Source of the DNA: Candidatus Beckwithbacteria bacterium
GTDB lineage: Bacteria; Patescibacteriota; Microgenomatia; UBA1400; UBA1449
Length of the DNA stretch: 60,216 nucleotides
NCBI GenBank assembly: GCA_012797845.1
Contig: JAAZOH010000002.1
Location: 1 to 60,216 of the forward strand
Direction of reading: 5' to 3'
Of the stretch, positions 4,413 to 55,282 are shown piece after piece (positions within the stretch are counted from its first letter, which is position 1; each line of letters begins with the position of its first letter). The notes under the pieces were generated by a model. That model was not told the origin of the DNA. It did not search any database and saw nothing but the letters and a program-made list of their open reading frames with translations. Made by a program: the position numbers and the translations under genes.

Positions 4413-4441
4413 GTGTGACACAATGAAAAAGCAGTGAGCTA
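4413..4441 (+). repeat. 29-bp direct repeat, copy 1 (copy 2 at 6631-6659)
   Basis: GTGTGACACAATGAAAAAGCAGTGAGCTA vs GTGTGACACAATAGAAAAGCAGTGAGCTA, 27/29 identical. Confidence 0.9.
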
Positions 4442-4512: not shown

Positions 4513-4665
4513 ATGAGAAAAATATCAACTGATCGGATTTTTGAATTTGAATTAGCTGCACTTAAATTACTTCAAGAGAATAATAATAGGCTACCATCTA
4601 GAGAAATCGTTAGAATTTTAGAAAATACACTTGAGTTGAACCAATATGAACCCTCCACGGACTAA
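4513..4665 (+). pseudogene. N-terminal remnant of an Mrr-type restriction protein (winged-helix Mrr_N), truncated by IS200
   Basis: MRKISTDRIFEFELAALKLLQENNNRLPSREIVRILENTLELNQYE resembles the first helices of Mrr_N. The frame runs into the IS end and stops at 4665. Not in the ORF track (too short). Confidence 0.55.
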
Positions 4666-5175
4666 AGTCCGTGGTTTCCTAAACATGTTATTGATCTTGT
4701 ACATACTTAATCACAGAACTCAGATTCCTATGGCCAACAGTACCAACAAAGTACCCTTCAGACCAAAAGCTATTTGCCCAGACAGCTTCTTCCAAGCTTG
4801 GAAACAGTTCTCGCAGCTTTTTACTGGTACCACCTTTGATCAGCTGCATAATCCTACTCGGACTGTATGTGGGTTTGGCTCCAAGCAGCAGGTGTATATG
4901 GTCAGGTTGGATGTTAAGCTCCACAATCTCAAAGTTGTTAATCTGCGCACAAAAACGAATCATGCCATCCAAACGTTTTTTAATGTTTCCTACCAGTTTT
5001 CGCTTACGATACTTGGGTATAAAAGTAAAGTGATACGTAATATCATAGGCAGTGTGAGTAATATGTTTAATTTCCATATTCTCAAGTTTATCAAATTGCC
5101 AAAACATTCGTTTTTGTGCTTACAAGGATTGCATTCCTCCCACGCCCTTACAGGGCGGGGTTTCTTGCAATGTTT
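4646..5175 (-). mobile_element. complete IS200-type element (tnpA only, no tnpB), 530 bp
   Basis: LE hairpin CCC-A-CGCCCT-tac-AGGGCG-GGG (~5139-5160), RE hairpin CCACGGACT-aa-AGTCCGTGG (4655-4674). On the minus strand both hairpins are preceded by GAAA and both cleavage sites read TCAT. Confidence 0.92.
4688..5077 (-). CDS. tnpA: IS200/IS605 family transposase TnpA (Y1, HUH)
   Basis: YHFTFIPKYRK, DHIHLL (HUH), KGGTSK, FWSEGYFVGTVG, IKYVQDQ catalytic Tyr. Start set at ATG 5077. Confidence 0.95.
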   Translation of the reverse strand: MEIKHITHTAYDITYHFTFIPKYRKRKLVGNIKKRLDGMIRFCAQINNFEIVELNIQPDHIHLLLGAKPTYSPSRIMQLIKGGTSKKLRELFPSLEEAVWANSFWSEGYFVGTVGHRNLSSVIKYVQDQ

Positions 5176-5634
5176 ATGAACTCTGTTACCCAAGAAGATA
5201 GTCTCGGTTGTAGTCTTGCTTGTATTGCCCAGCTAACCCACAAATCCTATCAAGCAATTTTAAAATTAGTCGATCATCAAAAAGCTCAAACTCAGGGATT
5301 TTATTGTAAAGAATTAGTATCTATTCTATCTTACTTAGGCTATAACTATAACTATAAATACTTAAAACCAAGACTTAAAAAACTAATTTATACAAATGGG
5401 GTCATTGTCTTTATAAAACGTTCAAAAAAATATCCTAACGGACATTATTTAATTCGTGTTAATAAAACATGGATGGATCCCTGGATAAATTTTTCTGCTA
5501 CCGCAAGGATTATCGATGCAACGGCAGGTTTTAGAAAACGGCTACCTGGAACTCCAATTTATGCTTTGTTCCCAAGGCAAATATTAGTTAGTGAACAAAA
5601 AAATACCTGCTGCTACAAAAGTAACAACAGGTAA
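5176..5634 (+). CDS. peptidase C39-like (papain-fold) protein
   Basis: QEDSLGCSLAC (Gln/Cys), GHY (His), MDP (Asp). The true start ATG 5176 coincides with the IS target site. Confidence 0.6.
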   Translation: MNSVTQEDSLGCSLACIAQLTHKSYQAILKLVDHQKAQTQGFYCKELVSILSYLGYNYNYKYLKPRLKKLIYTNGVIVFIKRSKKYPNGHYLIRVNKTWMDPWINFSATARIIDATAGFRKRLPGTPIYALFPRQILVSEQKNTCCYKSNNR

Positions 5635-5682: not shown

Positions 5683-6480
5683 CTACATATGTATGCTAGA
5701 CATATTGGATATGTCATGCATGCTGTAGATATATTCCAAAACTTGTTCAACTGTAGCTAAAGCCTTAGTAATAGCTAGCAGTGGGTCTTTGGCATAAAGG
5801 CTAATGTATTTCCAACTACTGCCTGAATGGTCTTCATATCCATAAAGATTAGTTAAGACTGCAGCTGTAAATTCAGCTACCACTTCCTGATCAACATTTT
5901 GCCCAGCTGTCAATTTGCCTTTTATCCGGGCATGGATAGCATGAGCTAGTTCGTGGAAAAAGACTGAGGGGTCAAAACTAGCTAAACGGATCCTTGTCCC
6001 ATCAGTAGTACAATCTCCATACCTATCTTCTATGGTAGGGGTATAACTAACGTTAATCTTTAGTTTTTCAGCCAGATCCATAAGCGGGGGTAATTTGGCA
6101 GGAGTGTATAGAGAAATAGGAGTTTCCCCTTTGGTAGCAGAGGCTGGAAAAACCGGTACTGGATAAAAACCTATACAAGTATATTCTTCCCGATCAGCTT
6201 CTCCATCAATATCTTTGACCATATGTGGTCTGATGATATATACAGCCTTACTACCTTTCTGGACAAATCTACCTGCCTTTTGCCATTGTCTAAAACCTCT
6301 GCAATCTAATTCTTCAGCCTGGATATAGGCTAGAACCCGGTTACTTAAGCTCCAGTTTCGAGCTGGAGCTTGGGGATCTAACCGAATCCTGACGGTATTA
6401 GTAATGGGAGATAAATCTCCATTCTTAAACTTCTCGACCACCTGATCGAGACTTTGTTTAACCTTAGGAGAGAATTTCAT
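5683..6480 (-). CDS. ardC: ArdC-like ssDNA-binding antirestriction protein with zincin (HExxH) domain
   Basis: WSLSN..L, GFRQWQKAGRFVQKGSKA (ArdC N-terminal domain), HELAHAIH, EVVAE. Strong AAGGAGG SD upstream. Confidence 0.8.
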   Translation of the reverse strand: MKFSPKVKQSLDQVVEKFKNGDLSPITNTVRIRLDPQAPARNWSLSNRVLAYIQAEELDCRGFRQWQKAGRFVQKGSKAVYIIRPHMVKDIDGEADREEYTCIGFYPVPVFPASATKGETPISLYTPAKLPPLMDLAEKLKINVSYTPTIEDRYGDCTTDGTRIRLASFDPSVFFHELAHAIHARIKGKLTAGQNVDQEVVAEFTAAVLTNLYGYEDHSGSSWKYISLYAKDPLLAITKALATVEQVLEYIYSMHDISNMSSIHM

Positions 6481-6536
6481 AAACCCTATCCTCCTTCTCT
6501 ACTGCAGGAATAGTAATTAAGCACCAAGCTTGCAGC

Positions 6537-6659
6537 TAGCTCACTGCTCAACCATTCCTACTACACACGAAGTCAAGGTGCGGCATTTGTGTCCTGATTT
6601 TTTGAAGGATGCAGATGCTGTGCCTTGACCGTGTGACACAATAGAAAAGCAGTGAGCTA
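6537..6659 (+). other. ~123-nt imperfect hairpin (ssDNA or RNA structure) between ardC and the R-M operon
   Basis: Outer stem 6537-6548/6648-6659 (12 bp perfect), middle stem 6564-6569/6630-6635, inner stem 6572-6595/6606-6629 (24 contiguous pairs, 6 of them G-T/U wobble on the + strand). Confidence 0.85.
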
Positions 6660-6721
6660 AGAGACTATATTTTTATTATTAGTTGAGGAAATATAACTTT
6701 GGATATAGAATTATAGGGATT

Positions 6722-7645
6722 ATGCCAATCTTTAAAGTCAACAAACAAAAGCTGGAATCAATTAAGGAAGTTAAAATTGATTTGGAAAAAGACATACAAA
6801 CTCTTACGGAAAATAATCTGACTACTATTTTTAATCTTCAATTTGTTTGTTCTGAATTTACTCATAATAACTTACGTATTGATACTTTGGCTTACGATCA
6901 AGAAACTCAATCCTTTGTGATTATTGAATATAAAAAAGATCGAAGTTTTTCTGTTATTGATCAAGGCTATGCTTATTTAGCTTTAATGCTAAATAATAAA
7001 GCTGACTTTATTTTGGAATACAATGAAAAGACTAATCAAAATCTTAAGCGAGAGAATATAGATTGGTCACAATCACGGGTTATCTTTATCGCTAATTCTT
7101 TTACCAAATATCAACAGCAGGCTATTAACTTTCAAGATTTACCAATTGAACTTTGGGAAGTTAAAAAATACAGCAATAACACTTTTTTATATAACCAACT
7201 TCAATCACCCCAAGCTTCAGAATCGATTAAGACAATTAGTAAAAATAAAACCATAAGCAAAGTTTCACAAGAGGTTAAAAAGTATACAATTAGCGATCTT
7301 TTTAAAGTAGATTGGAGAAACTCAAGAGATTTATTTGAATCTTTAAGACCTAGAATTCTAGAAATAGATGAAAGAATTGAAGAAAAATTTAATAAATTTT
7401 ATGTAGGATACAAAATTGGGTCATATAATCTTTGTACGTTAAATGTTTATAAATCTAAACTGGAGTTAGACTTGGTAAGAGTTGATAAAAAAGATCTAAA
7501 TGATCCAGAGAATAAAATAAAACTACGACCATGGAAAGAAAATAATTGGGGTAAGTTATGTAGATATACTATCCTATCTAAAAATGACTTCGATTATGCT
7601 ATGTTTTTAATTAAACAAGTATATGAAAAGTTTTATAAGGAGTAG
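6722..7645 (+). CDS. PD-(D/E)xK (NucS/EndoMS-like) nuclease fused to DUF5655-like domain
   Basis: RIDTLAYD..FVIIEYKK nuclease motif, DQG..Y, C-terminal H/NWG-type domain. ATG start 6722 preferred over TTG 6683. Confidence 0.7.
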   Translation: MPIFKVNKQKLESIKEVKIDLEKDIQTLTENNLTTIFNLQFVCSEFTHNNLRIDTLAYDQETQSFVIIEYKKDRSFSVIDQGYAYLALMLNNKADFILEYNEKTNQNLKRENIDWSQSRVIFIANSFTKYQQQAINFQDLPIELWEVKKYSNNTFLYNQLQSPQASESIKTISKNKTISKVSQEVKKYTISDLFKVDWRNSRDLFESLRPRILEIDERIEEKFNKFYVGYKIGSYNLCTLNVYKSKLELDLVRVDKKDLNDPENKIKLRPWKENNWGKLCRYTILSKNDFDYAMFLIKQVYEKFYKE

Positions 7646-7647
7646 CC

Positions 7648-9102
7648 ATGTTCGAACAAGCCTTCAAAAATATTGATGATGTTTTATGGAAAGATGCAGG
7701 AGTGAGTAACGAGCTTGATTATATCGAGCAAACCTCCTGGATTTTGTTTTTAAAATATTTGGATGATTATGAAAAAGATAAAAAAACTGAAGCTGCCTTG
7801 GCTGGGAAGCAATATCGATTTTTAATTGATGAAGCATTTCGTTGGGAATCTTGGGCTTGTCCAAAAACTCAAGATGGTAAACTGGATCACAATCAGGCTT
7901 TATCTGGTGATGACCTTAGAGACTTTGTTGACCGTCAACTGTTCCCCTATCTCAAAAAATTTAGAGAAAAAGCTGAAAGCCCAGATACAATCGAATATAA
8001 AATCGGAGAAATATTTTCCCAGCTGCGAAACAAAATTCAAAGTGGCTATACCCTAAGAAATGTCTTAGACATTATCGACCAGATGAAATTCCGCTCCCAG
8101 CAGGAAAAATATGAACTGTCGCATCTTTATGAAGCCAAAATCCAAAATATGGGTAATGCCGGCCGTAATGGTGGCGAGTACTACACACCAAGACCACTGA
8201 TTAAAACTATTGTCAAAGTAGTTGATCCGCAGATTGGAGATCAAGTTTATGACGGGGCGGTTGGTTCGGCCGGATTTTTGATCGAGGCGTTTGAGTATAT
8301 GCGCAACTTGCGGCCACTGTCGACCAATGACGTCACAACTTTGCAAAAGCAAACCTTTTTTGGTAAAGAGAAAAAATCGCTGGCGTATATCATCGGGATT
8401 ATGAATATGATCCTGCATGGCATTGATGCCCCCAATATTTTGCATACCAACACCCTTTCTGAAAATATTTTGGATATCCAGGAAAAAGACCGCTTTGATG
8501 TGGTGCTGACCAATCCCCCATTTGGCGGCAAAGAACGCAAAGAAGTCCAGCAGAATTTCCCGATCAAAACCAGTGAAACCGCCTTTTTATTTCTGCAACA
8601 TTTTATAAAATCTCTAAAAGCAGGAGGTAAAGCCGGGATTGTAATTAAAAATACTTTTCTGTCCAATACCGACAATGCTTCCATTTCCCTGCGCAAACTG
8701 CTTTTAGAAAACTGCAACCTGCATACGATTTTGGATTTGCCAGGCGGCGTTTTTACCGGAGCTGGAGTCAAAACCGTAGTCTTATTTTTCCAAAAAGGTT
8801 CAGCAACCCAGAAGGTTTGGTTTTACCAGCTTAACCTTGACCGCAACTTAGGCAAAACCAATCCGATCAATGAAAATGATTTGGCAGAATTTTTGACTTT
8901 GCAAAAAGACAAAGCTGATAGCCGAAATTCCTGGACAGTAGATATTAAAGACGTAGACGAAAAAACCTATGATCTGTCAGTCAAAAATCCAAATAAAAAT
9001 GATGAGGTGGTGTTGCGCGAGCCGAATGAGATTTTGGAAGAGATGGAAAAGTTAGACTTAGAAAATAAAAATATAATGTTGGAAATTAAAAACTTACTAT
9101 AG
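7648..9102 (+). CDS. hsdM: type I restriction-modification methyltransferase subunit M (N6-adenine)
   Basis: GEYYTPRPLI, YDGAVGSAGFL (motif I), NPPFGG (motif IV), TSETAFLFLQH. Confidence 0.95.
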   Translation: MFEQAFKNIDDVLWKDAGVSNELDYIEQTSWILFLKYLDDYEKDKKTEAALAGKQYRFLIDEAFRWESWACPKTQDGKLDHNQALSGDDLRDFVDRQLFPYLKKFREKAESPDTIEYKIGEIFSQLRNKIQSGYTLRNVLDIIDQMKFRSQQEKYELSHLYEAKIQNMGNAGRNGGEYYTPRPLIKTIVKVVDPQIGDQVYDGAVGSAGFLIEAFEYMRNLRPLSTNDVTTLQKQTFFGKEKKSLAYIIGIMNMILHGIDAPNILHTNTLSENILDIQEKDRFDVVLTNPPFGGKERKEVQQNFPIKTSETAFLFLQHFIKSLKAGGKAGIVIKNTFLSNTDNASISLRKLLLENCNLHTILDLPGGVFTGAGVKTVVLFFQKGSATQKVWFYQLNLDRNLGKTNPINENDLAEFLTLQKDKADSRNSWTVDIKDVDEKTYDLSVKNPNKNDEVVLREPNEILEEMEKLDLENKNIMLEIKNLL

Positions 9103-9106
9103 TTCT

Positions 9107-10921
9107 ATGAGAATACAAACGATAAGTATTGCAAATTATCCTCCAATTAAAAATTTAAAAATAGAGAACTTAAGTAATGTTGTAATTATTGCTGGAGCGA
9201 ATGGTTCAGGTAAAACAAGACTGAAAGAGGCTATTATTCAAACTTTTCAAGGTAGTCCTCAAATGTCGCTAGAGATTCGAGCCACTAAAGATGAAGAAAA
9301 ACAGAGATTTAATGATGATTCAATTAATGTGATTCAGGGACAGTCAAATCAAATATTAAATCAATACATGCAAAGTCGTAGTTTTGGTCGGGGTAAATAT
9401 GTTGGATCATTAGTTCAGATTGATTCTGATAGAAATATTACAACTACAAAATATAACAAAATAAATTATCAAACCTCTGATCCAGATGACCAAGATTCAC
9501 CAAGCACGTTTTATTGTCAAAATTTTGCAAATAGATGGCAAGATTTTATGAATTATATTCATCAAAAAGTGGCTGCATATAATACAAAATTAGCTGAGGA
9601 AGTAAAAAACAACCAAGAAAAAAAGGGACGCGAAATATTACTAAAATTGCCACATCCACTAGATAAATACAAAGCTATATTCAAGAAACTACTACAAGAT
9701 AAAGAATTACAAGACATAGACCCAGCTAATCCAGGCGAATTTAAATACAAAACTGATGAGGGAATAATACTGCCTTTCAAGGCATTAAGTTCTGGTGAAC
9801 AGGAAATTATCAAAATAATATTTGATATTGAAAGGAAAGATATTAAACATTCAGTTATTCTTGTTGATGAACCTGAATTACATTTACACCCTACCCTTAC
9901 TTTCAAATTAATAGAAAATTTGAAGACAATTGGCGAACAAACAAATCAGTTTATATTTCTCACTCATTCTGCAGATATTATTTCAACTTATTATTCGACC
10001 GGAGATGTATATTTTATTGATGCAGAACAAACTGGACAAAACCAGGCTCATAAATTAAGTGAGCTTGATCATAGTCATAAAACATTAGTAAAACTTATAG
10101 GCGAAAATCTAGGTTTATTTGCTGTAGGCAAAAAACTTATTTTTATTGAAGGAGATAGTTCAAGTATTGATCGAATGACTTACCATTCTATAGCCCAAAA
10201 ATATCTTCCTGATGCTAAAGTAATTCCAATAGGTTCCGTTGAGAGTATAGGAACACTAAATATCATAGAAGAACAAATAAGAAATGCAATTTTTGGTATA
10301 GACTTTTATATGATTAGGGATCGTGATGGTTTAGCAAATGATCAGATCAATGAATTAGAAAAAAGTGGGAAATTAAAATGTTTGAAACGAAGACATATAG
10401 AAAATTATTTTTTTGATGAAGGAACCTTATTTAAGGTTGCTGAAAGATTGTGTCTAACTACAATAAATCCACAAATTACCCCTACCTATATTATTTCCGA
10501 ATTAAAAAAAATTGCTTCTAAAATGTTTAATTTAAATCTTTTGCAAAGCATAAAAGATTATTTAGTACTTAATCACAACCTAGACATTCCTACTGTTCGG
10601 AACATAGATAAAAAAAGCTCTGAAGAAATAAAAATAGAAATGATAAGTGGAGTAAAACAATCTTTGTCAAAAATCAATATCGATCTTTCTGAAGTAAAAC
10701 TAGACCAATGGATTACTACAGAAAAACTCAAATTAGAACGTTCACTTCAAGCTGATGAGTGGATTATTGATTTCCGTGGCAAAGAAATATTTTCTGTATT
10801 TTGTTCCAATGTTTTTCATGATGATGTTTTGAAAATAAGACAAGCGTATGTAGATATAGCACTTCAAGAAAAACCTAATATCTTTAAAGATATTATTGAC
10901 ATATATCAAAGTTTTAATTAA
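9107..10921 (+). CDS. ABC/AAA ATPase fused to TOPRIM-like nuclease (OLD-family-like)
   Basis: GANGSGKT Walker A, LSSGEQ signature, ILVDEPELHLHP Walker B/D-loop, THS H-loop, then FIEGD...D and RDRD TOPRIM motifs and IENY. Confidence 0.85.
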   Translation: MRIQTISIANYPPIKNLKIENLSNVVIIAGANGSGKTRLKEAIIQTFQGSPQMSLEIRATKDEEKQRFNDDSINVIQGQSNQILNQYMQSRSFGRGKYVGSLVQIDSDRNITTTKYNKINYQTSDPDDQDSPSTFYCQNFANRWQDFMNYIHQKVAAYNTKLAEEVKNNQEKKGREILLKLPHPLDKYKAIFKKLLQDKELQDIDPANPGEFKYKTDEGIILPFKALSSGEQEIIKIIFDIERKDIKHSVILVDEPELHLHPTLTFKLIENLKTIGEQTNQFIFLTHSADIISTYYSTGDVYFIDAEQTGQNQAHKLSELDHSHKTLVKLIGENLGLFAVGKKLIFIEGDSSSIDRMTYHSIAQKYLPDAKVIPIGSVESIGTLNIIEEQIRNAIFGIDFYMIRDRDGLANDQINELEKSGKLKCLKRRHIENYFFDEGTLFKVAERLCLTTINPQITPTYIISELKKIASKMFNLNLLQSIKDYLVLNHNLDIPTVRNIDKKSSEEIKIEMISGVKQSLSKINIDLSEVKLDQWITTEKLKLERSLQADEWIIDFRGKEIFSVFCSNVFHDDVLKIRQAYVDIALQEKPNIFKDIIDIYQSFN

Positions 10922-10995
10922 TTTTTATAAAAAATTTTAATAACTAAAGAATTAATTAAGATATACGTTTTTACGCTAAATAAAAAAGAATATGT

Positions 10996-11409
10996 ATGAG
11001 CATTAATCATCAAGAAATAATAACCGAGATTAATAAAAATATTACTACAATAATAACTGTAATTTTGATAATTTTTACTTTCTTTTTTTATTATTCCAGT
11101 GCTTATTTTTTTGCATTTCTAACCTTAGTTTTACTTTTGATTAGTCCCAGAGTTAATGACATTAAAAAGATCAAGGTAAGTTTTAAAAATGTTGATATTG
11201 AATTTAGAGAACTTAATAAAGAATTAAAAGAAGTTATACAATCCAAAAATACATTAGAAAATAAACTTAAAGGAGCTAAAAAAATACTTAGCAATATGTT
11301 TAAACTTGGTTGTCGTATTGGAGAGGGAAAGGCTTTAGGTACAATTTCAGATGTAAAAATGATTGAAGACGAGGAAGGAAATATAACAGTTCAATATGAT
11401 GAATCCTAA
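10996..11409 (+). CDS. hypothetical membrane protein (two TM helices plus coiled region)
   Basis: Hydrophobic N-terminal pair of segments; overlaps the hsdS start. Confidence 0.6.
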   Translation: MSINHQEIITEINKNITTIITVILIIFTFFFYYSSAYFFAFLTLVLLLISPRVNDIKKIKVSFKNVDIEFRELNKELKEVIQSKNTLENKLKGAKKILSNMFKLGCRIGEGKALGTISDVKMIEDEEGNITVQYDES

Positions 11410-12490
11410 CTGGCAAACAAAAAAACTAGGCGAAGTAATAAAACTTGAATATGGAAAACCATTACCTAAATCTGATAGAAAAACTGATGGTAGATATCCG
11501 ATTTATGGCGCCAATGGAATTAAAAGCTGGAGTAATAAATTTTATTATGATAAGCCCACTATTATTGTTGGCAGGAAAGGTTCTGCTGGTGAAATTAATC
11601 TAGTGGAAGAAAAATTTTGGCCATTAGATGTTACTTATTTTACAACTTTTGATGCTAAAAAATATGATTTAAAATTTTTATATAACCTTTTAAAAAATCT
11701 TGAACTCCCAAAATTAGCAAAAGGTGTGAAGCCTGGGATTAATAGGAATGATATTTATAAAATAAAAGTTCCCCTTCCTCCCCTTTCCGAACAACGTCGC
11801 ATAGTCAAAATTCTGGATGAGGTTTTTGGACAGATTGAGAAAGTCAAAGCAAATACTCAAAAAAATCTGGAAAATAGCAAAGAGTTGTTTGAATCGTATT
11901 TGAAATACTCCTATGAAGGAAACAATGAATGGTTAACTAAAAACTTATTTGAGGTTGCAGAAATAAATAAAGATAAAAATGGTAGAAAAGACCTTCCATA
12001 TATTGGGATGGAGGATATTGAATCTAATTCTGGGAAGTTTATCGGATCATTTGAACCAAAAAGTGTAAAGAGTTCATCTTTTTATTTTAATGATAAACAT
12101 ATTTTATATGGTAGATTAAGACCTTATTTAAATAAGGTACTGATACCAGATTTTGAAGGACATTGTTCGACGGAAATATTTCCGATTAGAGTAAATAATA
12201 GTTTGGATAAAAAGTTTTTATTTTACTGGCTTATAAAAAGATCAACTACAGAAAGAATTAATTCTACATGTACAGGAGCCAGAATGCCGAGAGCAAATAT
12301 GAATAAAGTTTTTAAAGACTTTAAAGTTGTATTTCCAAAATCTCTTACTGAGCAAAAGCAAATAGTCGCTAAGCTGGATGATTTATCAGAGAAAACTAAA
12401 AAATTAGAACAAAATTATCGGCAGAAATTGGCGGATTTGGAGGAGCTTAAGAAATCAGTTCTCAATAAAGCGTTTAGTGGTGAGTTGTAA
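11396..12490 (+). CDS. hsdS: type I restriction-modification specificity subunit S
   Basis: Two TRDs separated by PLPPLSEQRRIV..LD and closed by EQKQIVAKLD...KAFSGEL conserved helices. Confidence 0.95.
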   Translation: MMNPNWQTKKLGEVIKLEYGKPLPKSDRKTDGRYPIYGANGIKSWSNKFYYDKPTIIVGRKGSAGEINLVEEKFWPLDVTYFTTFDAKKYDLKFLYNLLKNLELPKLAKGVKPGINRNDIYKIKVPLPPLSEQRRIVKILDEVFGQIEKVKANTQKNLENSKELFESYLKYSYEGNNEWLTKNLFEVAEINKDKNGRKDLPYIGMEDIESNSGKFIGSFEPKSVKSSSFYFNDKHILYGRLRPYLNKVLIPDFEGHCSTEIFPIRVNNSLDKKFLFYWLIKRSTTERINSTCTGARMPRANMNKVFKDFKVVFPKSLTEQKQIVAKLDDLSEKTKKLEQNYRQKLADLEELKKSVLNKAFSGEL

Positions 12491-12500
12491 AAATAAAGAT

Positions 12501-12538
12501 AGATTCCGGATCAGGCTTTCAATCTGTCCGGAATGACA
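12501..12538. repeat. REP-like palindrome
   Basis: AGATTCCGGATC...TCCGGAATGAC, with stem ATTCCGGA/TCCGGAAT. Confidence 0.65.
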
Positions 12539-12543
12539 TGGGT

Positions 12544-12608
12544 TAGTTTACAATTATTTACCAACTAGTTGACATAAGAGAAGCCATAGTTTACAATTAG
12601 TTGACATA
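12544..12608 (+). promoter_or_regulatory. four TAGTT(T/G)ACA boxes, candidate operator of the downstream wHTH protein
   Basis: TAGTTTACAATTA at 12544 and 12587; TAGTTGACATA at 12566 and 12598, ending at the ATG. Confidence 0.6.
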
Positions 12609-13666
12609 TGATAAACAAAGAAGAAATACTTAAAACCATAAAAGATAAAGGCATTGTCAAAAGCTCTGATTTGGTGGCTAGTTTTGGTGTGTCAAGACAA
12701 TATATTGCCAGACTTTTAGCCCAGCTGGTTTCTGAAAATGAAATTGTCAAAGTTGGCTCAACCAGAGGTGCTTTGTATGCTACTGAAAGTTATTTAGCTA
12801 AAAATCCTCAATCTGCTGCTGCTGTTTACACTAAAACTTTTAAAAATACTAATCTGGAAGAGCATAAGATTGTTGATGAGATAAAAACCAGCTTTTCCTT
12901 GTTTGATCAATTGCCGGAAAATATCAAAAGTATTTTTGAATACGCTTTTTCAGAAATGCTCAATAACGCTATTGAGCATTCGCACTCTAAAACTATTAAA
13001 GTAAAAGTCAGTTTAAATCAGAAAGAGCTTTCCTTTGTGATTGATGATTTTGGTATAGGAGTATTTAGAAGCATCATGAATAAAAGAGGCCTCAAATCTG
13101 AGCTGGAAGCGATTCAAGATTTGCTCAAGGGCAAAACTACAACAGCGCCCAAGCTCCACTCTGGAGAGGGAATCTTCTTTACTTCTAAAGTTGGAGATCA
13201 ATTTGCTTTGGATAGTTTTGGTTACCAACTTATGACAGATAATACCATTGATGATCTGTTTGTCGGCAAAACCAAGGGACAAAAACAAGGAACAAGAGTT
13301 ACTTTTAAAATCGGTATTGATAACAAACATCATCTCAATGATGTTTTTAAAGAGTATACCAATGTGAGTAATGATGGAGACTATGGTTTTGACAAAACGG
13401 AAATAAAAGTGAGGCTCTACACCATGGGTGGGGTGTATATTTCCCGCTCTCAAGCACGCAGAGTTTTGGCAGGACTGGAAAAATTTAAAGTCATCGTGAT
13501 GGACTTTGATAAAGTGCCGACAGTAGGTCAGGCATTTACCGATGAAATTTATCGGGTCTTTAAAAATAAATATCCGGAAATAAAAATTGAGAATATAAAT
13601 ACGAATGAAGCTGTCAATTTTATGGTGGAGCGGGCCAAGAAAGAAGCAGAAGTAGGAAGAACATAG
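12608..13666 (+). CDS. wHTH - HATPase_c - STAS-like (DUF4325) protein
   Basis: N-terminal HTH (SRQYIARLL), EMLNNAIEHS N-box, DDFGIG G1, HSGEGIF G2, GTRV; C-terminal SRSQARR..DF..V..VGQAF.DE. Confidence 0.85.
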   Translation: MINKEEILKTIKDKGIVKSSDLVASFGVSRQYIARLLAQLVSENEIVKVGSTRGALYATESYLAKNPQSAAAVYTKTFKNTNLEEHKIVDEIKTSFSLFDQLPENIKSIFEYAFSEMLNNAIEHSHSKTIKVKVSLNQKELSFVIDDFGIGVFRSIMNKRGLKSELEAIQDLLKGKTTTAPKLHSGEGIFFTSKVGDQFALDSFGYQLMTDNTIDDLFVGKTKGQKQGTRVTFKIGIDNKHHLNDVFKEYTNVSNDGDYGFDKTEIKVRLYTMGGVYISRSQARRVLAGLEKFKVIVMDFDKVPTVGQAFTDEIYRVFKNKYPEIKIENINTNEAVNFMVERAKKEAEVGRT

Positions 13667-13692
13667 TGTGAAAGTTTGTAACCATCTTTTAT

Positions 13693-16053
13693 ATGAACGA
13701 AGCCGAAACTCGAGCTGAATATATTGATCCAAAGTTAAAATCATCTGGATGGGGAGAAGTTGAAGGGTCAAAAGTTTTACGGGAATATCGGATAAGTGAA
13801 GGAAGAATACTGGGGAATTTAATAGATAGAAAGCCGGAAATTGCCGATTACATCTTGGTATATAAAAACCGCAAACTTGCAGTTATAGAAGCCAAAGCTG
13901 ATGAGCTGCCGGTATCAGAAGGCGTTAATCAAGCCAAAAATTACGCCAGAAAACTAAAGCTTGATTTTACCTATTCCAGCAATGGCAGAGAAATTTACGA
14001 AGTGAATATGAAGACCGGTAAGGAATGGACTTTGGAGCGCTTCCCTACCCCGGATGAACTTTGGCAAGCTAGTTTTTCGGATCAGAATGAATGGAAAATC
14101 AAATTTTCCAATATTCCCAATGAAGGTAGTTTTGGAAGTCGTTATTATCAAGAAATTGCAATCAACAATATTTTGGATGCTATAGCTGAGGAGAAAACCA
14201 GAATTTTGCTGACCATGGCTACCGGTACTGGCAAAACTGCCGTGGCTTTTCAAGTAGCTTGGAAACTGTTTCAAACCCGCTGGAATTTAAACCGTGATGG
14301 CGGTCGCAGGCCCAGAATTTTATTTTTAGCCGACCGCAATATTTTAGCTGACCAAGCTTTCAATGCCTTTTCTGCTTTCCCGGAAGATGCGCTGGTGAGG
14401 ATTAATCCTTTGGATATCCGTAAAAAAGGCTGCGTACCGACTAATGGCAGTATCTTTTTTACTATTTTTCAAACATTCATGAGTGGAGCAAATAACACTC
14501 CTTATTTTGGGGAGTATCCGGCAGATTTTTTTGACTTCATTATTATTGATGAATGTCATCGAGGTGGGGCCAATGATGAGAGTAATTGGCGCGGTATTTT
14601 GGACTACTTCAAACCCGCGGTACAACTGGGCATGACGGCTACTCCCAAGCGAAAAGATAATATTGACACGTATAAATATTTTGGCGAACCGGTTTATATT
14701 TACTCACTTAAAGAAGGTATTAACGACGGCTTTCTAACTCCATTTAAAGTTAAGCGGATTAAAACCACGCTTGATGATTATGTGTATGTTTCTGATGATC
14801 AGATAATTGAAGGCGAAGTTGAAGAAGGCAAAGTTTATGAAGAACCGGATTTTAACCGCATTATTGAAATAAAAGAACGAGAGGCTGAAAGAGTCAGGAT
14901 AGTTTTGAATGAAATAAACCAAAATGAAAAGACACTTATTTTTTGTGCTACCCAACTTCACGCTTTAGCGGTGAGAGATTTAGTTAATCAAATGAAAAAG
15001 AGTCATGATCCCCTTTATTGTGTCAGAGTAACTGCCGACGATGGGTCCAGAGGTGAACAATATTTACGCGAATTTCAAGATAATGAAAAAACTATTCCCA
15101 CTATTTTAACTACTTCCCAAAAATTATCTACCGGAGTTGATGCCAGAAATATTCGCAATATTGTTTTGATGCGGCCGATTAATTCTATGATTGAATTTAA
15201 ACAAATTATTGGTCGAGGCACTAGACTATTTGATAATAAATATTATTTTACTATTTATGATTTTGTTGATGCCTACAAACATTTTTCTGATCCAGAATGG
15301 GATGGTGAACCGATCCCAGAAATTTGTAAAAAATGTGGTCAAGATCCTTGTGTTTGTGAACCAAAATCACCCCAAGTTTGTCCCGTTTGTGGTCAATCGC
15401 CATGTATTTGCGAAAAACCACCTAGAATTTGTCCCGTTTGTGGTCAGTCACCTTGTATTTGTAAACCCAAGAAAATGTTAAAGATAAAATTACGTGACGG
15501 TAAAGAACGAGATATTCAACATATGCTTTCCACCTCATTTTGGGGGGCAGATGGCAAACCGTTGTCTTCTGAAGAATTTATCAAAAAGATTTATGGAGCT
15601 TTACCAGATTTATTTAAAAATGAAGCTGAACTACGAAAGATTTGGTCCAATCCCACAACCCGAAAAAAGTTTTTGAGTCGGTTATTTGAGTTAGGCATAG
15701 ACTTAGAACAATTAGAAAATATTCAAAAAGTAGTCAACGCTCAAAATTGCGATCTTTTTGATGTTTTAATTTATTTATCATTTAGCAAACCCTTAATTAC
15801 TAGACAAGAAAGAATTGATAAAAACAGAAAAAATATTTTTGAAGGACTTGATGATAAGCAAATAGAATTTTTAAACTTTGTTTTATCAAAGTATGAAGAA
15901 AAAGGTGTAGAAGAATTAGATGAAGAAAAACTACCAATTCTTTTAAATCTTAAATATCAAGCTATAGCTAATGCCGAACAATCTTTGGGTGATGTTAATA
16001 CAATCCGCGATATGTATTTTGACTTTCAAAAAAGACTTTATGCTGAAGTTTAA
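13693..16053 (+). CDS. hsdR: type I restriction endonuclease subunit R (EcoEI/EcoAI-like)
   Basis: ADYIL..AVIEAK nuclease motif, MATGTGKT, IIDECHRG, LSTGVDA, QIIGRGTR, and an EcoEI-type C-terminal domain. Confidence 0.95.
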   Translation: MNEAETRAEYIDPKLKSSGWGEVEGSKVLREYRISEGRILGNLIDRKPEIADYILVYKNRKLAVIEAKADELPVSEGVNQAKNYARKLKLDFTYSSNGREIYEVNMKTGKEWTLERFPTPDELWQASFSDQNEWKIKFSNIPNEGSFGSRYYQEIAINNILDAIAEEKTRILLTMATGTGKTAVAFQVAWKLFQTRWNLNRDGGRRPRILFLADRNILADQAFNAFSAFPEDALVRINPLDIRKKGCVPTNGSIFFTIFQTFMSGANNTPYFGEYPADFFDFIIIDECHRGGANDESNWRGILDYFKPAVQLGMTATPKRKDNIDTYKYFGEPVYIYSLKEGINDGFLTPFKVKRIKTTLDDYVYVSDDQIIEGEVEEGKVYEEPDFNRIIEIKEREAERVRIVLNEINQNEKTLIFCATQLHALAVRDLVNQMKKSHDPLYCVRVTADDGSRGEQYLREFQDNEKTIPTILTTSQKLSTGVDARNIRNIVLMRPINSMIEFKQIIGRGTRLFDNKYYFTIYDFVDAYKHFSDPEWDGEPIPEICKKCGQDPCVCEPKSPQVCPVCGQSPCICEKPPRICPVCGQSPCICKPKKMLKIKLRDGKERDIQHMLSTSFWGADGKPLSSEEFIKKIYGALPDLFKNEAELRKIWSNPTTRKKFLSRLFELGIDLEQLENIQKVVNAQNCDLFDVLIYLSFSKPLITRQERIDKNRKNIFEGLDDKQIEFLNFVLSKYEEKGVEELDEEKLPILLNLKYQAIANAEQSLGDVNTIRDMYFDFQKRLYAEV
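15325..15462 (+). repeat. three tandem CxxCGQxPCxC repeats inside hsdR
   Basis: CKKCGQDPCVC / CPVCGQSPCIC / CPVCGQSPCIC; units start at 15325, 15379 and 15430. Confidence 0.9.
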
Positions 16054-16139
16054 ACAAATTAATTAAGTTTCCAGATTGATAAAATAATTAGGTTTACAAC
16101 TATTTTAAAATGATATAAAACTCAGGTTTTATATAAACT

Positions 16140-16886
16140 ATGGAAAAAATAATCAAATCCGAATTAGAACCTCATATACAGAAACTTATTGATGATTTGG
16201 TAATAAAATATGGTCCAATCGCTATCGTATTAATAGGACTATTTTTAATAATAGTAATAATAACATGGGATATTCTAAAAAATAAAATAAGAGGTGAAGT
16301 AAAAAAGGGAGTCGATAAACATAAAGCAGAGATTGATAATACCTACACTAAACAAATTGAACATTATCGTCTTTATGTTGCTAAACAACACAAAGCCTAT
16401 GCCAAATTAAATAAATATTTATTAAAAACAGAAGGTTTGGCAGTATTTCAAGCTTTAAAGACATATCCAGATTTTACAGAATATACAGAAACAGAAATTT
16501 CGAAATATCTTAAAGAAAGGAACGCATCAGAAAATGAATTGAAACAATTCATTAGTTTAATGGGTGATTCTAAAGCTTTACAAAAAGAAATGCAAAACTA
16601 TACAGAATTATTTAATGTAAGAAAAGCTCGTGTTTTTTTTCATAAAACTAAAAATCATTATTGGATTAACGCATTATATTTTTCCAATAAAATTGAAGAG
16701 CAATTTAAAGATATTACTAAAATATTGAATGAAATGATTATTATTAGAGAAATACCGTCAAATGATAATAAACTTACGAAAGAAGATATGCAGACATTGA
16801 GAAGTTTACAAAAAAACTTGCAATCAAGTATTGATAAAATAGTCAAACAAATGAAGGAAGAGTTATCTGCAGGCTTAGCTAAGTAA
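16140..16886 (+). CDS. hypothetical protein with single N-terminal TM helix and helical body
   Basis: Clean 248-aa ORF co-oriented after hsdR; no recognisable motif. Confidence 0.7.
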   Translation: MEKIIKSELEPHIQKLIDDLVIKYGPIAIVLIGLFLIIVIITWDILKNKIRGEVKKGVDKHKAEIDNTYTKQIEHYRLYVAKQHKAYAKLNKYLLKTEGLAVFQALKTYPDFTEYTETEISKYLKERNASENELKQFISLMGDSKALQKEMQNYTELFNVRKARVFFHKTKNHYWINALYFSNKIEEQFKDITKILNEMIIIREIPSNDNKLTKEDMQTLRSLQKNLQSSIDKIVKQMKEELSAGLAK

Positions 16887-17015
16887 GTTAGTTTATTAAG
16901 TCCTATAATCTATACTTTACCACCTTCTTCTGATATAATTTGGTTCTAATTTAAGTCTATTTTTAGGTTTAGCTTTTTATAATCAATACTATAAGTATGC
17001 TAATTTTTATTTACC

Positions 17016-17576
17016 ATGAAAGATAGTGAGCAATCAATCGGACTATATGACTATGCCGAGCTACAATCATTTTTAGCTGCTCCATTTAGACAGTTAGAAA
17101 CTAGGCAAATACCACAAGCTCCTAGTAAAGAATTTTTGATGTGGATACCAACACAGAGACATATTGAAGTAGGTTTTGTATACAAGTCTAGTATCTGGTA
17201 CCTTGTAAAAGCTAGTGATTGGGGAATCCCGATTTGGTTAATACCTCCAGATGCTGATGTCTTACTTCATTCTCATTACGAAATTCCCGGACAAGATCCA
17301 ATAAAAGCAACCATACCTAGCGCTGAAGACTTTTTAAATGCTTCACCAACTGCCCATAATTTAATTACTTCAACTATTGGTTTAACTCAATTCCATACAG
17401 TTGATTCCTTACATCATCTGGAATTAAGAGCCATCGCAGAATCAGAAAGATATAGAACCGATATTGATGGCTACTTAAGCTTTCTTGAAAGTCTTGATGC
17501 TAGGTATGAAGTGTATCTATGGGAAGAAATGTCGGATAACCAATTAGCTTGTCTTTTGAAAAGCAGTTACAAATGA
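17016..17576 (+). CDS. hypothetical protein, possible JAB/MPN-like metallo-motif
   Basis: IEVG ... LLHSH ... PSAED resembles the JAMM E..HxH..SxxD motif with an elongated spacer. Confidence 0.45.
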   Translation: MKDSEQSIGLYDYAELQSFLAAPFRQLETRQIPQAPSKEFLMWIPTQRHIEVGFVYKSSIWYLVKASDWGIPIWLIPPDADVLLHSHYEIPGQDPIKATIPSAEDFLNASPTAHNLITSTIGLTQFHTVDSLHHLELRAIAESERYRTDIDGYLSFLESLDARYEVYLWEEMSDNQLACLLKSSYK

Positions 17577-17605
17577 AAATTATCCATATATAATTAAAAC
17601 TATAT

Positions 17606-17818
17606 ATGACTACAGCTACTCTAATTCAAGTCGGCAAAAAACTAAAAAAGGCAAGACAAAAAAGAAGTTTAACGCAGCAGCAAGTTGCCGATAAAGTGGG
17701 TATTCACGTCAGTTATTACTACCGCATTGAGCGGGGCGTTGTTAATCCTTCTATAGAAATATTAGAACAAGTTTGTAAGGTATTAAAAATTAAAGGAAGT
17801 GAGATCTTACCTTTTTAG
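17606..17818 (+). CDS. XRE-family helix-turn-helix transcriptional regulator
   Basis: LKKARQKRSLTQQQVADKVGIHVSYYYRIERG..NPS. Confidence 0.92.
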   Translation: MTTATLIQVGKKLKKARQKRSLTQQQVADKVGIHVSYYYRIERGVVNPSIEILEQVCKVLKIKGSEILPF

Positions 17819-18096
17819 TGTTTCGTGATTTTCTTCTGGCTGCTTTTTCCCTCCCGCTTTTTTAAGATAATTCTGGCTACTGATTCTAAAATATCAGCCA
17901 CTTTTTCAATATTATCTGGCGTAAGATTTTCTGGGTCTTTTTCCTCTAAGCCTATTTTGGCATATTTTAAAGCTACTACTCTACTTTCCAGTATTTTCTT
18001 AAATGTTTGCGAATGAATACACGAGAACTTTTTGAGGAAAACTTCTTCTTGACTTAAACTCAAAGCCTTATTTTTTACTGACTTATTATTTTTCAT
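17815..18096 (-). CDS. small hypothetical protein divergent from the recombinase
   Basis: ATG 18096 (MKNNKSVK...), 93 aa. The longer ORF-track call would overlap the recombinase start. Confidence 0.55.
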   Translation of the reverse strand: MKNNKSVKNKALSLSQEEVFLKKFSCIHSQTFKKILESRVVALKYAKIGLEEKDPENLTPDNIEKVADILESVARIILKKREGKSSQKKITKH

Positions 18097-18192
18097 TGCT
18101 ATATTATAACTTATTTGACCTCCAGTAATCTTTCTCTCTATCCCTATATGGATAGTTAAGCCTGACATATCAATAATTATATAATAATACGT

Positions 18193-19839
18193 ATGGAAAA
18201 TGCTGTGGCTGTCATTAGGGTATCCACTGTAACCCAAAGTATGCGGGGAGATTCACCTGAGGATCAAAAGCAACAGATCGAACGTTATGCTCAGGCAAGA
18301 AGTATCAGGATTAAGAAATATTTTGTCTTCATGGACTCAGCTTCTAAAGAGCAACAGCCTGTCCAGGAAGCTATTAACTACTGCATAAAAGCTCAGAATC
18401 ATATCCAGCTCCTTATCATCAAATCAATTGACCGATTTACCAGAGGTGGTTCATCACTGTATGACTTGATGAAAACTCGCCTTACAAAACACGGGGTTAA
18501 GTTAATCGATTTATATGGTGTCATCAGCAACCAAAGTGTTAACACCTTGGAACATTTAAGTGTAGCTTATTCCTGGAGTGTGTACAATCCTACGAAAAAA
18601 ACCGAGCTTTTAGAAGCCGAACGGGGAAAAGATGAAATGAGGGATATTATGACCCGGATGATAGGGGCTGAAATCAGGTATGTCAGACTGGGTTACTATG
18701 TCAGGGCTGCCCCGCTTGGGTACCAAAACCAAAAAATTGAGACAGTGCATGGCAGGCGGAATATTTTAGTCCCCCACCCGGTTGAATCAAAATGGATTAT
18801 TGCTATGTTCCGGCTAAAAGCTGAAGGTTTTTTATCTGATCATGAAATTGTCCAACACGTTAACTTATCCGGTTTTAAGACACGAAGATACTATGTTCGG
18901 GATACGCAAGATAAGCGCAAAGTAATTGGGTATCAGGGCGGCAAAGCCTTAACTATAAAAAATTTTGACAGGTTACTTAAAAAACCAATCTATGCTGGTA
19001 TCAACTGCGAAAAATGGACGGCTAATAAGCCAGTAAAATGCGTGTTCCCTGGTCTTGTATCAATTGACCTTTTCAATAAGGCTAATAAAGACAAGATGCT
19101 AATCTGTGAGCAAAATGGTGAGGTGCAACTTATCAAAGGTAAAGCCATGCTTAAGCGCTTTGTCAAAAGTTCCAAAACCTATTTGTATCCATATAAAAGA
19201 CTGGTGCTATGCCCTATTTGCAGACAGCCGTTCTTTGCCAGTGCTTCTAGAGGCAGATTGGGCATATACTATCCTGCCTACCATTGCAACAAACGTGGCC
19301 ATTACTACCGTGTACCTCTGAAAAAATTCAACCAAACAGTAATCAATTTTTTAAGCAGAATCAGGATTAAAAAAAAGTATAATTCTTACTACCAAAAACT
19401 GTTTAAGCGCGAATGGAAGCAAAAGCAACAATTACGAAACAAGCATCGGCTGCTAATTGACACCAGGTTACAGGAAATTGATACAGAAATTAAGCTTAAC
19501 CTTGAAAAGGTTAACATGCTCTATTCAAAAACTGCCTTAAGTGCAATTGAGGTAACAATAGGACAGCTAGAAAGGGAAAAGAAAAAGTTACAAGCCAAGA
19601 GAAGCATAACTCTAAAGAATGCCAGGAATGATAAAAACAAACATCCTCAAATTAGTCAGCCAAGTAATCAGATTCCTACACATATTATTAATGACCATAA
19701 TACAGTTAGTAGAGAAAGGCTATTTAACTACCTTTTCCAAACCTTACCCACGTATGAGGAGCTAGAAAAATTTAGTGCCAAATTAAACAGAGAATTTACC
19801 ATTCATCTGGGCCAGGAGAAGGTGATGCAAACGGCATAG
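18193..19839 (+). CDS. large serine recombinase (resolvase + recombinase + Zn-ribbon + coiled coil)
   Basis: IRVST catalytic Ser, SIDRFTRG, APLGY, CPIC...YHC zinc ribbon, C-terminal coiled coil. Confidence 0.92.
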   Translation: MENAVAVIRVSTVTQSMRGDSPEDQKQQIERYAQARSIRIKKYFVFMDSASKEQQPVQEAINYCIKAQNHIQLLIIKSIDRFTRGGSSLYDLMKTRLTKHGVKLIDLYGVISNQSVNTLEHLSVAYSWSVYNPTKKTELLEAERGKDEMRDIMTRMIGAEIRYVRLGYYVRAAPLGYQNQKIETVHGRRNILVPHPVESKWIIAMFRLKAEGFLSDHEIVQHVNLSGFKTRRYYVRDTQDKRKVIGYQGGKALTIKNFDRLLKKPIYAGINCEKWTANKPVKCVFPGLVSIDLFNKANKDKMLICEQNGEVQLIKGKAMLKRFVKSSKTYLYPYKRLVLCPICRQPFFASASRGRLGIYYPAYHCNKRGHYYRVPLKKFNQTVINFLSRIRIKKKYNSYYQKLFKREWKQKQQLRNKHRLLIDTRLQEIDTEIKLNLEKVNMLYSKTALSAIEVTIGQLEREKKKLQAKRSITLKNARNDKNKHPQISQPSNQIPTHIINDHNTVSRERLFNYLFQTLPTYEELEKFSAKLNREFTIHLGQEKVMQTA

Positions 19840-22702: not shown

Positions 22703-22776
22703 GGGGTTGTAGCTCAGTTGGTTAGAGCATCCGCCTGTCACGCGGAAGGCCGCGGGTTCGAGTCCCGTCAATCCCG
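22703..22776 (+). tRNA. tRNA-Asp(GTC)
   Basis: Acceptor GGGGTTG/CAATCCC, anticodon arm TCCGC-ctGTCac-GCGGA, GGTTCGAGTCC T-loop. CCA not encoded. Confidence 0.97.
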
Positions 22777-22880
22777 CACATCTTTTATCTCAAAAACAAC
22801 TATATCAAACTATTCTAAAGATTACTGCAAGTTCAAACTTATTCTATGTTATAATTAGTCAAATAATTTTTTAGGAATCT

Positions 22881-55029: not shown

Positions 55030-55215
55030 CCTGACTTTTAGTAATAACTTTGTCACAAAATTACTTTTGGATTTAATTATTACATTGTGGGCTAAGTCTG
55101 ACCCAGAAGGTTTCCGCAGATGCTAACCAGCTTATGCTAGTTGTCCGACTTCCCTCGATAAACTCGGGACCTTCTTCCTCGTCTCCCCTAGATGAACTCG
55201 GGGCCTTGCGCTCGT
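55030..55215 (-). ncRNA. glmS ribozyme (GlcN6P-activated), variant with insertions
   Basis: In the glmS 5' leader, in canonical order: A^GCGC (55212/55211), P1 CCCC/GGGG, GACGAGG, AGAAGGU, UUUAUCGAG, UCGG, GCGGA, ACCUUCU, then AGUAAU..GUGACAAAG..AUUACU. Confidence 0.85.
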
Positions 55216-55282
55216 GCTACTTTTATGCTCCTTTACCTCCTTTCGCGTTAATTACGCTACCATAGTACAATAATCTTACCAT

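Follow-up and report, generated by a model that had tools for sequence, protein, structure and literature searches.

The 123-nt hairpin upstream of an ArdC-family gene in the 60,216-nucleotide stretch of DNA analysed here (the window) recurs as a family that we call class 1; its structure is real and under selection, and it is on the strand serving as template for ardC that folding is selected. We give roughly an even chance to the reading that this hairpin is a single-stranded DNA (ssDNA) promoter for ardC, Frpo-like in the way it works and unrelated in sequence to Frpo/ssi; folding as ssDNA and folding as RNA are not distinguishable with certainty from these data. An ssDNA promoter had been proposed in the sequence-only reading of this DNA. 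That proposal now gains an invariant extended -10 element, a family of related hairpins and a conjugation-type gene context; TTGAC does not fit as a -35 box, and no sequence similarity to the leading region of F was found. The features are listed in Table 1.

Table 1. Features of the window around ardC, loci with full class 1 copies, and the parts of the class 2 element
Feature	Position	Strand	Remarks
R', direct copy of the hairpin's final 29 nt (6631-6659), matching at 27/29	4413..4441	+	
IS200 Y1 transposase TnpA	4688-5107		left of ardC; Pfam E 7e-37; interrupts a small ORF
ArdC-family gene (ardC)	5683..6480	-	N-terminal ssDNA-binding domain and HExxH metalloprotease motif
ardC 5' leader	6481..6536	-	conserved as part of the class 1 module
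Ribosome-binding site GGAGG	complement of 6490-6494	-	
Small hairpin of the leader, CTGCA/TGCAG	6502-6506 with 6531-6535	-	
Class 1 fold-back hairpin, whole element	6537..6659	+ (ardC template strand)	three nested stems
Outer stem	6537-6548/6648-6659	+	12/12 pairs, perfect
Outer stem, 5' arm	6537..6548	+	proposed template of the initially transcribed region
Predicted ardC transcription start, + strand folded	6547..6550	-	estimated by counting
5'-side internal loop	6549..6563	+	would be the bubble's template side
Middle stem	6564-6569/6630-6635	+	6 bp
Inner stem	6572-6595/6606-6629	+	24 bp, 10-nt apical loop
G-T pairs of the inner stem	6579/6622, 6580/6621, 6582/6619, 6587/6614, 6590/6611, 6591/6610	+	
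Extended -10, TGACACAAT	6634-6642	+	3'-side internal loop; TG in the last middle-stem pairs
Outer stem, 3' arm	6648..6659	+	non-template-like strand, downstream of the -10
Promoter-like site of the R-M operon	6683-6711		downstream of the hairpin; promoter scan
DUF5655/HSDR_N_2 protein			right of the hairpin
Type I R-M operon containing inserted ATPase genes	7648-16053		right of the hairpin
Large serine recombinase	18193-19839		right of the hairpin
Full class 1 copies	window, L163, L191, L192, L164, L166, L015/L018/L025		
Class 2, TATAAT-like box	1st part from the gene-proximal end		
Class 2, perfect hairpin GGAAGCAGG/CCTGCTTCC	2nd part		
Class 2, invariant GCGGGGTGA	3rd part		
Class 2, second hairpin TTTTGCAAGGG...CCCTTGCAAAA	4th part		
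Class 2, third hairpin GAGGGG-YAAGR-CCCCT	5th part		

Fold and strand asymmetry of the hairpin

The product of ardC matches the Pfam family ArdcN (E 2e-5), contains an invariant FFHELxHxxH motif and has 448 homologues, mostly from Patescibacteria records. Computed folding recovers across the whole hairpin the three nested stems that the sequence-only reading had described. With RNA parameters the + strand reaches -66.1 kcal/mol (z -8.7) and the - strand -55.4 kcal/mol (z -5.4), with DNA parameters the values are -32.2 (z -6.0) and -26.0 kcal/mol (z -3.6), respectively, and none of 200 shuffles folded as well in any of the four tests. The + strand is indeed the template of ardC, which is encoded on the - strand, and TTGAC does occur in both arms, at 6625-6629 on the + strand and as a mirror copy at 6572-6576 on the - strand. 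Exactly six pairs of the inner stem are non-Watson-Crick, all of them G-T on the + strand and none A-C, just as had been noted. The chance of such a bias had been put at about 1/64; the 6:0 count holds, and the odds for this one sequence are only about 1/32 when taken two-sided.

A family of hairpins upstream of ardC in Patescibacteria

The loci of ArdC homologues came from three sources, namely species-representative genomes, metagenomes, and contigs that encode particular close homologues; class 1 copies were sought in them with nhmmer profiles of the hairpin. Ten full copies in seven distinct variants were found in Patescibacteria, a count that leaves out L001, the same contig as the window. 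All of them precede the ArdC start by 50-60 nt and are on the strand opposite the gene, their sizes range from 115 to 185 nt, and besides the solitary partial copy R' the profiles matched only upstream of ardC. The conservation and covariation upstream of ardC homologues, on which the sequence-only reading had made its proposal depend, were thus both observed. In alignment A4, 97.1% of the cells are paired and 9 of the 30 pairs are changed on both sides. The paired fraction and the covariation score were matched by none of 500 shuffles and the count of pairs changed on both sides by 7 of 500, and slid controls reached a paired fraction of at most 41.5%.

The core of the outer stem, CTCACTG/CAGTGAG, is invariant in nine sequences, and the pairs flanking it covary (GC, AT or TA at 6539/6657; CG or TA at 6547/6649). 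The middle stem is 100% paired in seven sequences with two compensatory pairs, its bases changing together between CACACG/CGTGTG and CATGCG/CGCATG, and the inner stem contains an invariant tandem of G-T pairs (6590/6611 and 6591/6610). Conservation ends exactly at the outer stem, and the flanks beyond are unrelated. Over 38 pairs in nine sequences (alignment A5) there are 285 Watson-Crick pairs, 48 G-T pairs at 13 positions and a single A-C pair at one position. Moreover, the template strand folds better than its complement in all five independent variants (-65/-54, -55/-49, -75/-52, -67/-43 and -60/-46 kcal/mol). Since the asymmetry appears both in the counts of the whole family and in the folds of all five variants, it is a property of the family and not a quirk of a single copy, and the earlier claim that folding is selected on the + strand is upheld by the 13 positions with G-T against one with A-C.

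The far flanks of the related loci are unrelated and consist mostly of genes co-oriented with ardC (Na_Ca_ex, Peptidase_S51, methyltransferase). Because the hairpin stays with ardC while these flanks change, the element belongs to ardC and not to the R-M operon. The alternative kept in the sequence-only reading, a structured + strand leader of the R-M operon, is therefore rejected, on the grounds of the unrelated far flanks and of the operon's own promoter-like site. In the related loci ardC is followed by a DUF2958 gene, often in an overlapping operon, and genes for Replic_Relax, a TraG/DUF87-type coupling protein and a serine recombinase are found nearby. Judging from this gene content, the set of ardC, DUF2958, Replic_Relax, coupling protein and recombinase is that of integrative mobilisable or conjugative elements, which move as ssDNA. 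No relaxase, coupling protein or DUF2958 gene was found within the 60-kb window, which matches an ENA metagenome contig, and this absence counts against an ssDNA promoter there. The copy in the window, with its ardC and hairpin intact and the transfer genes absent, may be a relic.

An extended -10 element in a bubble-like loop

In the sequence-only reading no clear -10 box had been recognised. An extended -10 does exist on the 3' side of the internal loop, with its hexamer CACAAT (6637-6642) unpaired. It reads TGACACAAT, TGACAAAAT, TGTCACAAT, TGGCATAAT, TGGTAGGAT, TGACACACT and TGGCACACT across the variants. Four residues, T6634, G6635, A6638 and T6642, are invariant in the nine sequences of A5, and by their place in the motif they correspond to T-15, G-14, A-11 and T-7 of an extended -10. 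The other positions of the 3'-side loop vary, unlike these four, and position -12 is usually C rather than T. From T-7 to the 12-bp outer stem there are exactly 5 nt in all seven variants. As the -10 is unpaired and held at this fixed distance from the outer stem, the loop mimics an open transcription bubble. The 5'-side loop is kept at 14-15 nt and is variable in sequence except for a leading CAA. Read by eye, its complement contains no -10-like hexamer in any variant, so that the duplex form has no -10 directed at ardC. In agreement with this, a promoter scan found no site on the - strand within 6480-6700, and neither the scan nor a reading of all variants gave a duplex promoter for ardC in the leader or in the sense copy of the loop.

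No -35 box lies at 16-18 nt from the -10, which counts against an ssDNA promoter, and the ssDNA-promoter model therefore has to depend on the extended -10 by itself. TTGAC, noted in both arms by the sequence-only reading, is a misfit as a -35, because TTGACC is only 6 nt away from the -10 instead of 16-18. Pairing TTGAC with a -10 at 17 nt (AGCAGT/GACAGT) was also rejected, A-11 not being conserved there. A simple -35/-10 scan of the hairpin upstream of ssb in the F plasmid missed the boxes there too, so that box-finding is a weak test in either direction.

Proposed mode of action

If the hairpin is an ssDNA promoter, events might run as follows. When the + strand DNA is single-stranded, the hairpin would fold back on itself; the middle and inner stems would form an upstream duplex ending at T-15/G-14, an internal loop of 12/15 nt resembling an open bubble would hold the hexamer CACAAT unpaired on its 3' side, and the 12-bp outer stem would serve as the downstream duplex. 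RNA polymerase holoenzyme could then bind this pre-melted extended -10 promoter and start near 6547-6550. A count of 7 nt along the 3' arm, starting from T-7, leads to G6649, which lies opposite C6547, and the template side of the loop gives 6550. The polymerase would copy the 5' arm and then the + strand leftwards, passing through a predicted leader of 67 nt with the small hairpin and GGAGG into ardC. Once the complementary strand has been made, the -10 would point away from ardC and the strand on the ardC side would carry no -10, and expression would stop. We infer a single-stranded stage involving the + strand, the use of the hairpin by RNA polymerase, and the start site.

Relation to known systems

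To our knowledge, ssDNA promoters have been demonstrated only in enterobacterial (E. coli-type conjugative) plasmids and are elsewhere only predicted. They take the form of large hairpins on the template strand, located upstream of anti-restriction genes and others of the leading region (PMC11541004, PMC12672017), fall into classes that are unrelated in sequence to each other, and have had their starts confirmed by 5' RACE (PMC12672017, PMC11541004). They are also able to prime or stall second-strand synthesis (bioRxiv 10.64898/2026.01.09.698686). The Frpo/ssi hairpins of IncF and IncI leading regions (classes 1-3, PMC12672017; Masai and Arai 1997, cited in PMC11541004) are likewise hairpins of the template strand, and class 1 shares with them a stable stem-loop on the template strand of the downstream gene. 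As in Frpo/ssi, class 1 sits directly upstream of an anti-restriction or establishment gene, several sequence-unrelated classes would serve one role, and the fold-back arm is proposed to carry promoter elements directed at the gene only when single-stranded. Unlike Frpo/ssi, the class 1 hairpin measures 115-185 nt and not about 300 nt, has an unpaired extended -10 in a bubble-like loop instead of a canonically spaced -35, and is hosted by Patescibacteria. Profiles of class 1 and of the class 2 element described below gave no nhmmer match (E<=10) in 15 kb of the F leading region. The relation to Frpo that we propose is thus one of ssDNA-promoter-like working and not of homology.

A Gram-positive precedent, whose mechanism is unknown, comes from plasmids of the pLS20 family, in which structured sequences precede ardC and further establishment genes (PMC8708921). 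One such sequence, EGeRS1, precedes ardC in pLS20 and blocks read-through in one orientation, and the strand transferred by pLS20 is the non-template (coding) strand of ardC (PMC8708921). The likeness of EGeRS1 to class 1 is a functional analogy only, both being conserved, highly structured and placed directly upstream of ardC's ribosome-binding site. EGeRS1 also precedes other establishment operons and is repeated within one element, a shared trait, and pLS20 relatives use two unrelated types of regulatory sequence, comparable to class 1 and class 2. It differs in being 420-750 bp long with multiple repeats, against a hairpin of 123 nt here.

RNA polymerase with a sigma70-type factor uses fork-junction and pre-melted bubble templates as well as extended -10 promoters (TGnTATAAT). 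The class 1 fold resembles such bubble templates in that the duplex ends at about -13/-14, TG lies at -15/-14, A-11 and T-7 are single-stranded on the non-template side and the downstream duplex starts close to +1. In class 1, unlike these templates, both 'strands' are arms of one DNA strand.

A second element at the same position

Most ardC genes of Patescibacteria are preceded by a different conserved element of 125-145 nt, class 2, which also occurs upstream of separate DUF2958 genes. The first profile search gave 39 copies and loci fetched later contained more, so that there are at least 39. In the class 2 alignment 92.3% of the cells are paired and 17 pairs are compensatory, and three well-aligned helices contain 25 G-T pairs against one A-C, on the template strand as in class 1. 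The ArdC proteins P0004 (class 1) and P0005 (class 2) are 81% identical and carry different elements, which makes class 1 and class 2 interchangeable modules. The box of class 2 lies on the 5' side of the first hairpin, 6-7 nt from the stem, with A-11 and T-7 near-invariant. This placement is a misfit to the simple geometry proposed for class 1 and speaks against the ssDNA promoter; the box could mark where a divergent RNA starts, or it could belong to a loop-back variant of the ssDNA promoter. A -35/-10 on the sense strand of class 2 (TTGCAA and 17 nt) is not conserved, for example in L011, and a sigma54-like reading (GG-N10-GC) is only weak.

Similar designs outside Patescibacteria

In three Moorella/Neomoorella genomes and one Desulfatibacillum MAG, ardC is likewise preceded by a template-strand hairpin of like design, which speaks for the ssDNA-promoter reading. 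In Moorella there is an outer stem, the -10 is in the 3'-side loop and a -35 is in the 3' arm of the inner stem (TTGCCG-18-TATAAT); the Desulfatibacillum MAG has the same layout (TTGAGG-16-TACAAT), and the sense strand has no -10 in any of these loci. Apart from Moorella and L070, none of the candidates had this layout. Over 107 ardC loci from outside Patescibacteria there was no general template-strand bias in promoter scores or folding energies, which counts against the ssDNA promoter, so that template-strand promoters or hairpins as a rule for all ardC homologues are not supported in these loci. Nothing useful came out of pattern scans, or of scanning viral contigs with a protein-based search.

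Alternative explanations

The main rival reading, possible though somewhat unlikely in our estimation, is that transcription of the + strand turns the hairpin into a structured non-coding RNA, which would run divergent or antisense to the leader of ardC and regulate ardC or the whole element in a FinP- or CopA-like manner. The antisense RNAs of FinP/traJ and CopA/CopT are also strong stem-loops opposite the 5' leader of a key gene for transfer or establishment. Both the 48 G-U pairs against one A-C and the tandem G-U, which is invariant, are features classically seen in RNA, and the RNA folding energy is very favourable (-66 kcal/mol, z -8.7). Furthermore, in L164 and L166 the apical part of the inner stem is replaced by a G/T-rich insert of 60-70 nt, which has 15-16 G-U pairs and folds only with many of them. 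The abundant and tandem G-T pairs and these inserts are energetically more natural in RNA and count against the ssDNA promoter, and the TATAAT-like box of class 2, which on the same strand precedes the first hairpin, is in the right place for an RNA start. On the other hand, neither an RNA promoter nor a terminator was found for class 1, unlike FinP and CopA: no variant has a conserved + strand -10 on the 5' side of the hairpin or a conserved terminator after it. The only conserved -10-like motif is near the 3' end of the hairpin, and a transcript from there would exclude the structure. In addition, Rfam 15 gave no match at gathering score at the hairpin locus, where only chance-level miRNA-type matches (E>=0.25) cover the hairpin, and none in 19 related loci. 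The exact end of conservation at the outer stem also argues against an RNA, as does the loop composition of class 2, in which triloops are commonest and the heptamer GCGAAGC, known for its unusual stability as a DNA mini-hairpin, is present 19 times among 38 sequences.

The hairpin could instead do another job in ssDNA than that of an ardC promoter, as an ssi/sso priming site, a barrier to double-strand conversion, or a relaxase or recombinase site, which we consider decidedly unlikely. Strand-specific folding and a mobile-element context would be equally expected for such a site. Truncated class 1 copies (L038, L167 and R') exist, and in two of them the break falls at the inner stem's base and on opposite sides, in R' at 4413 and in L038 after GCGAAGT; contigs assembled from short reads also often end within the hairpin (L002, L019, L193). 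Against this, the fixed 50-60 nt to the start codon of ardC and the co-inherited leader point towards a role in expressing the gene, the residues that never vary coincide exactly with those of an extended -10, and a site needed once per element would not be swapped at the same position among ArdC genes that are 81% identical.

A feature of double-stranded DNA, either a palindromic operator or cruciform with an ordinary rightward extended -10, or a structure of the ardC sense-strand 5' UTR or insulator, appears very improbable to us. In duplex DNA TGACACAAT reads as a normal + strand promoter that would fire rightwards, serving the R-M operon and, at R', ORF 4513. R' spans the -10 through the 3' arm of the outer stem, is solitary, with no such copy expected by chance, and lies 72 nt upstream of this + strand ORF, which hints at an ordinary promoter; R' and its counterpart R in the hairpin are both 65-72 nt upstream of + strand ORFs. 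A DNA methylase gene follows the hairpin on the side away from ardC in L025, and EGeRS1 of pLS20 upstream of ardC blocks read-through one way (PMC8708921). However, nothing is encoded rightwards beyond the hairpin in L164, L166, L191 and L192, the R-M operon possesses a promoter-like site of its own, folding is poorer on the sense strand in all variants, and the one-sided G-T bias and the compensatory changes along 40 pairs would be left unexplained.

An att site or integration scar, as the repeat of R' and R could suggest, is not supported, since a second partial copy is missing from every other class 1 locus and the 2.2 kb between R' and R contain no recombinase and only the IS200 and a disrupted ORF. 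An IS200/IS605 end or MITE is rejected, because TnpA is 1.4 kb off with ardC in between, no Y1 transposase was called in the loci of the nine other class 1 copies, and no class 1 copies besides the hairpin and R' were found in the 60-kb window, the 15-nt match at 49201-49215 lying inside an alpha-amylase gene with no hairpin. An integron attC does not agree with a hairpin that lies 5' of ardC, keeps a constant distance from it and comes with a conserved leader, and Pfam scans of the window ORFs examined gave no tyrosine recombinase.

Implications for mobile elements of Patescibacteria

If the hairpin is an ssDNA promoter, the expression of anti-restriction functions before second-strand synthesis would be a general solution across very distant phyla. 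The element, of about 120 nt, would be easily testable for function in vitro with ordinary RNA polymerase, and would be a marker for poorly known integrative mobile elements and their early genes in bacteria of the candidate phyla radiation. If the hairpin is instead a structured RNA, class 1 and class 2 would be two new structured RNA families tied to establishment genes of mobile elements. Patescibacteria depend on DNA uptake. A wider picture, which we regard as unlikely, is that their mobile islands carry interchangeable fold-back promoters, class 1 and class 2, with the -10 on the wrong strand beside a duplex that is strictly conserved, and that the establishment genes ardC and DUF2958 would be switched on only from incoming ssDNA, natural transformation being a possible trigger besides conjugation. 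Should this reading of the fold-back modules be true, it would extend ssDNA promoters beyond plasmid conjugation and define a minimal, -35-independent and pre-melted promoter architecture.

Upstream elements of ardC in Patescibacteria

Most Patescibacteria ardC genes, and separate DUF2958 genes as well, are preceded by an element of 125–145 nt, here called class 2, which has three hairpins, a TATAAT-like box and an invariant GCGGGGTGA. Its alignment (A2) takes in the ardC loci L003–L028, L037, L040, L061, L083–L088, L102, L105, L148, L165 and L168–L171, and it shows 17 compensatory pairs, with 25 G-T against one A-C among the wobbles counted on the template strand. The heptamer GCGAAGC occurs 19 times among 38 class 2 sequences. 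The element matched no Rfam family, and the window contains no copy of it.

The ArdC proteins of loci L164 and L165 (P0004 and P0005) are 81% identical and DUF2958 is next in both, whereas the upstream elements differ, being the nested-stem hairpin (class 1) at L164 and class 2 at L165. Upstream of ardC, the homology between the two loci ends just past the start codon, and therefore the entire leader is swapped together with the element as one module.

Class 1 variants, partial copies and their surroundings

All nine class 1 sequences keep the tandem G-T (TG over GT, window 6590–6591 with 6610–6611) unchanged. It is enclosed by the invariant TGTG/TGCA box, while the adjacent pairs covary. In the class 1 hairpins L164:2610–2792 and L166:1265–1442, the apical loop is replaced by a G/T-rich insert of 60–70 nt, which contains several GGAGG-like runs and folds only with 15–16 G-U pairs. 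The sequence at the 5' end of these two hairpins (AAGCTCACTGCTCAA) recurs exactly, over 15 nt, at window 49201–49215 (- strand), within an alpha-amylase gene and without a partner arm; this match was judged to be due to chance.

The window also carries a solitary direct copy of the 3' end of its class 1 hairpin, broken at the inner-stem base, and a + strand ORF begins 72 nt downstream of it. At locus L038 the truncation is complementary, on the opposite side of the inner stem. The ORF appears to be split by an IS200-type insertion, and its second part is weakly Peptidase_C39-like. Right of the hairpin there is a defence island; hsdR is followed by two ORFs without Pfam matches and then by a 548-aa serine recombinase.

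Features in the window
Feature	Position	Strand	Remarks
Direct copy of hairpin 3' end	4413–4441		29 nt, 27/29 identical; -10 through outer-stem arm
Apparently split ORF	4513–4665 and 5116–5634	+	
IS200-type insertion	4640–5200		
Perfect hairpin in the insertion	4651–4680		
Y1 transposase	4688–5107	-	Pfam E 7e-37
Defence island	6683–19839		Order: DUF5655/HSDR_N_2 protein, hsdM, AAA_15/AAA_21 ATPase, hsdS, HATPase/DUF4325 protein, hsdR
tRNA-Asp	22703–22777		
582-aa ORF	53172–54920		
glmS ribozyme	55030–55223	-	Rfam RF00234, 50.7 bits; upstream of the 582-aa ORF

Assembly breaks and hairpins outside Patescibacteria

Five contigs from independent short-read assemblies stop 40–70 nt upstream of ardC, three of them (L002, L019 and L193) at or within the 5' arm of the outer stem and two (L027 and L194) before the hairpin start. 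Thus, the hairpin element causes assemblies to fragment, and databases will under-represent it.

Large template-strand hairpins are also found upstream of ardC in Moorella/Neomoorella (L058, L060, L062 and L069) and in a Desulfatibacillum MAG (L070). Their 3' arm bears a canonical -35, and TATAAT or TACAAT lies in a 3'-side loop that is closed by an outer stem. These hairpins are likely to be ssDNA promoters in Firmicutes and Desulfobacterota.
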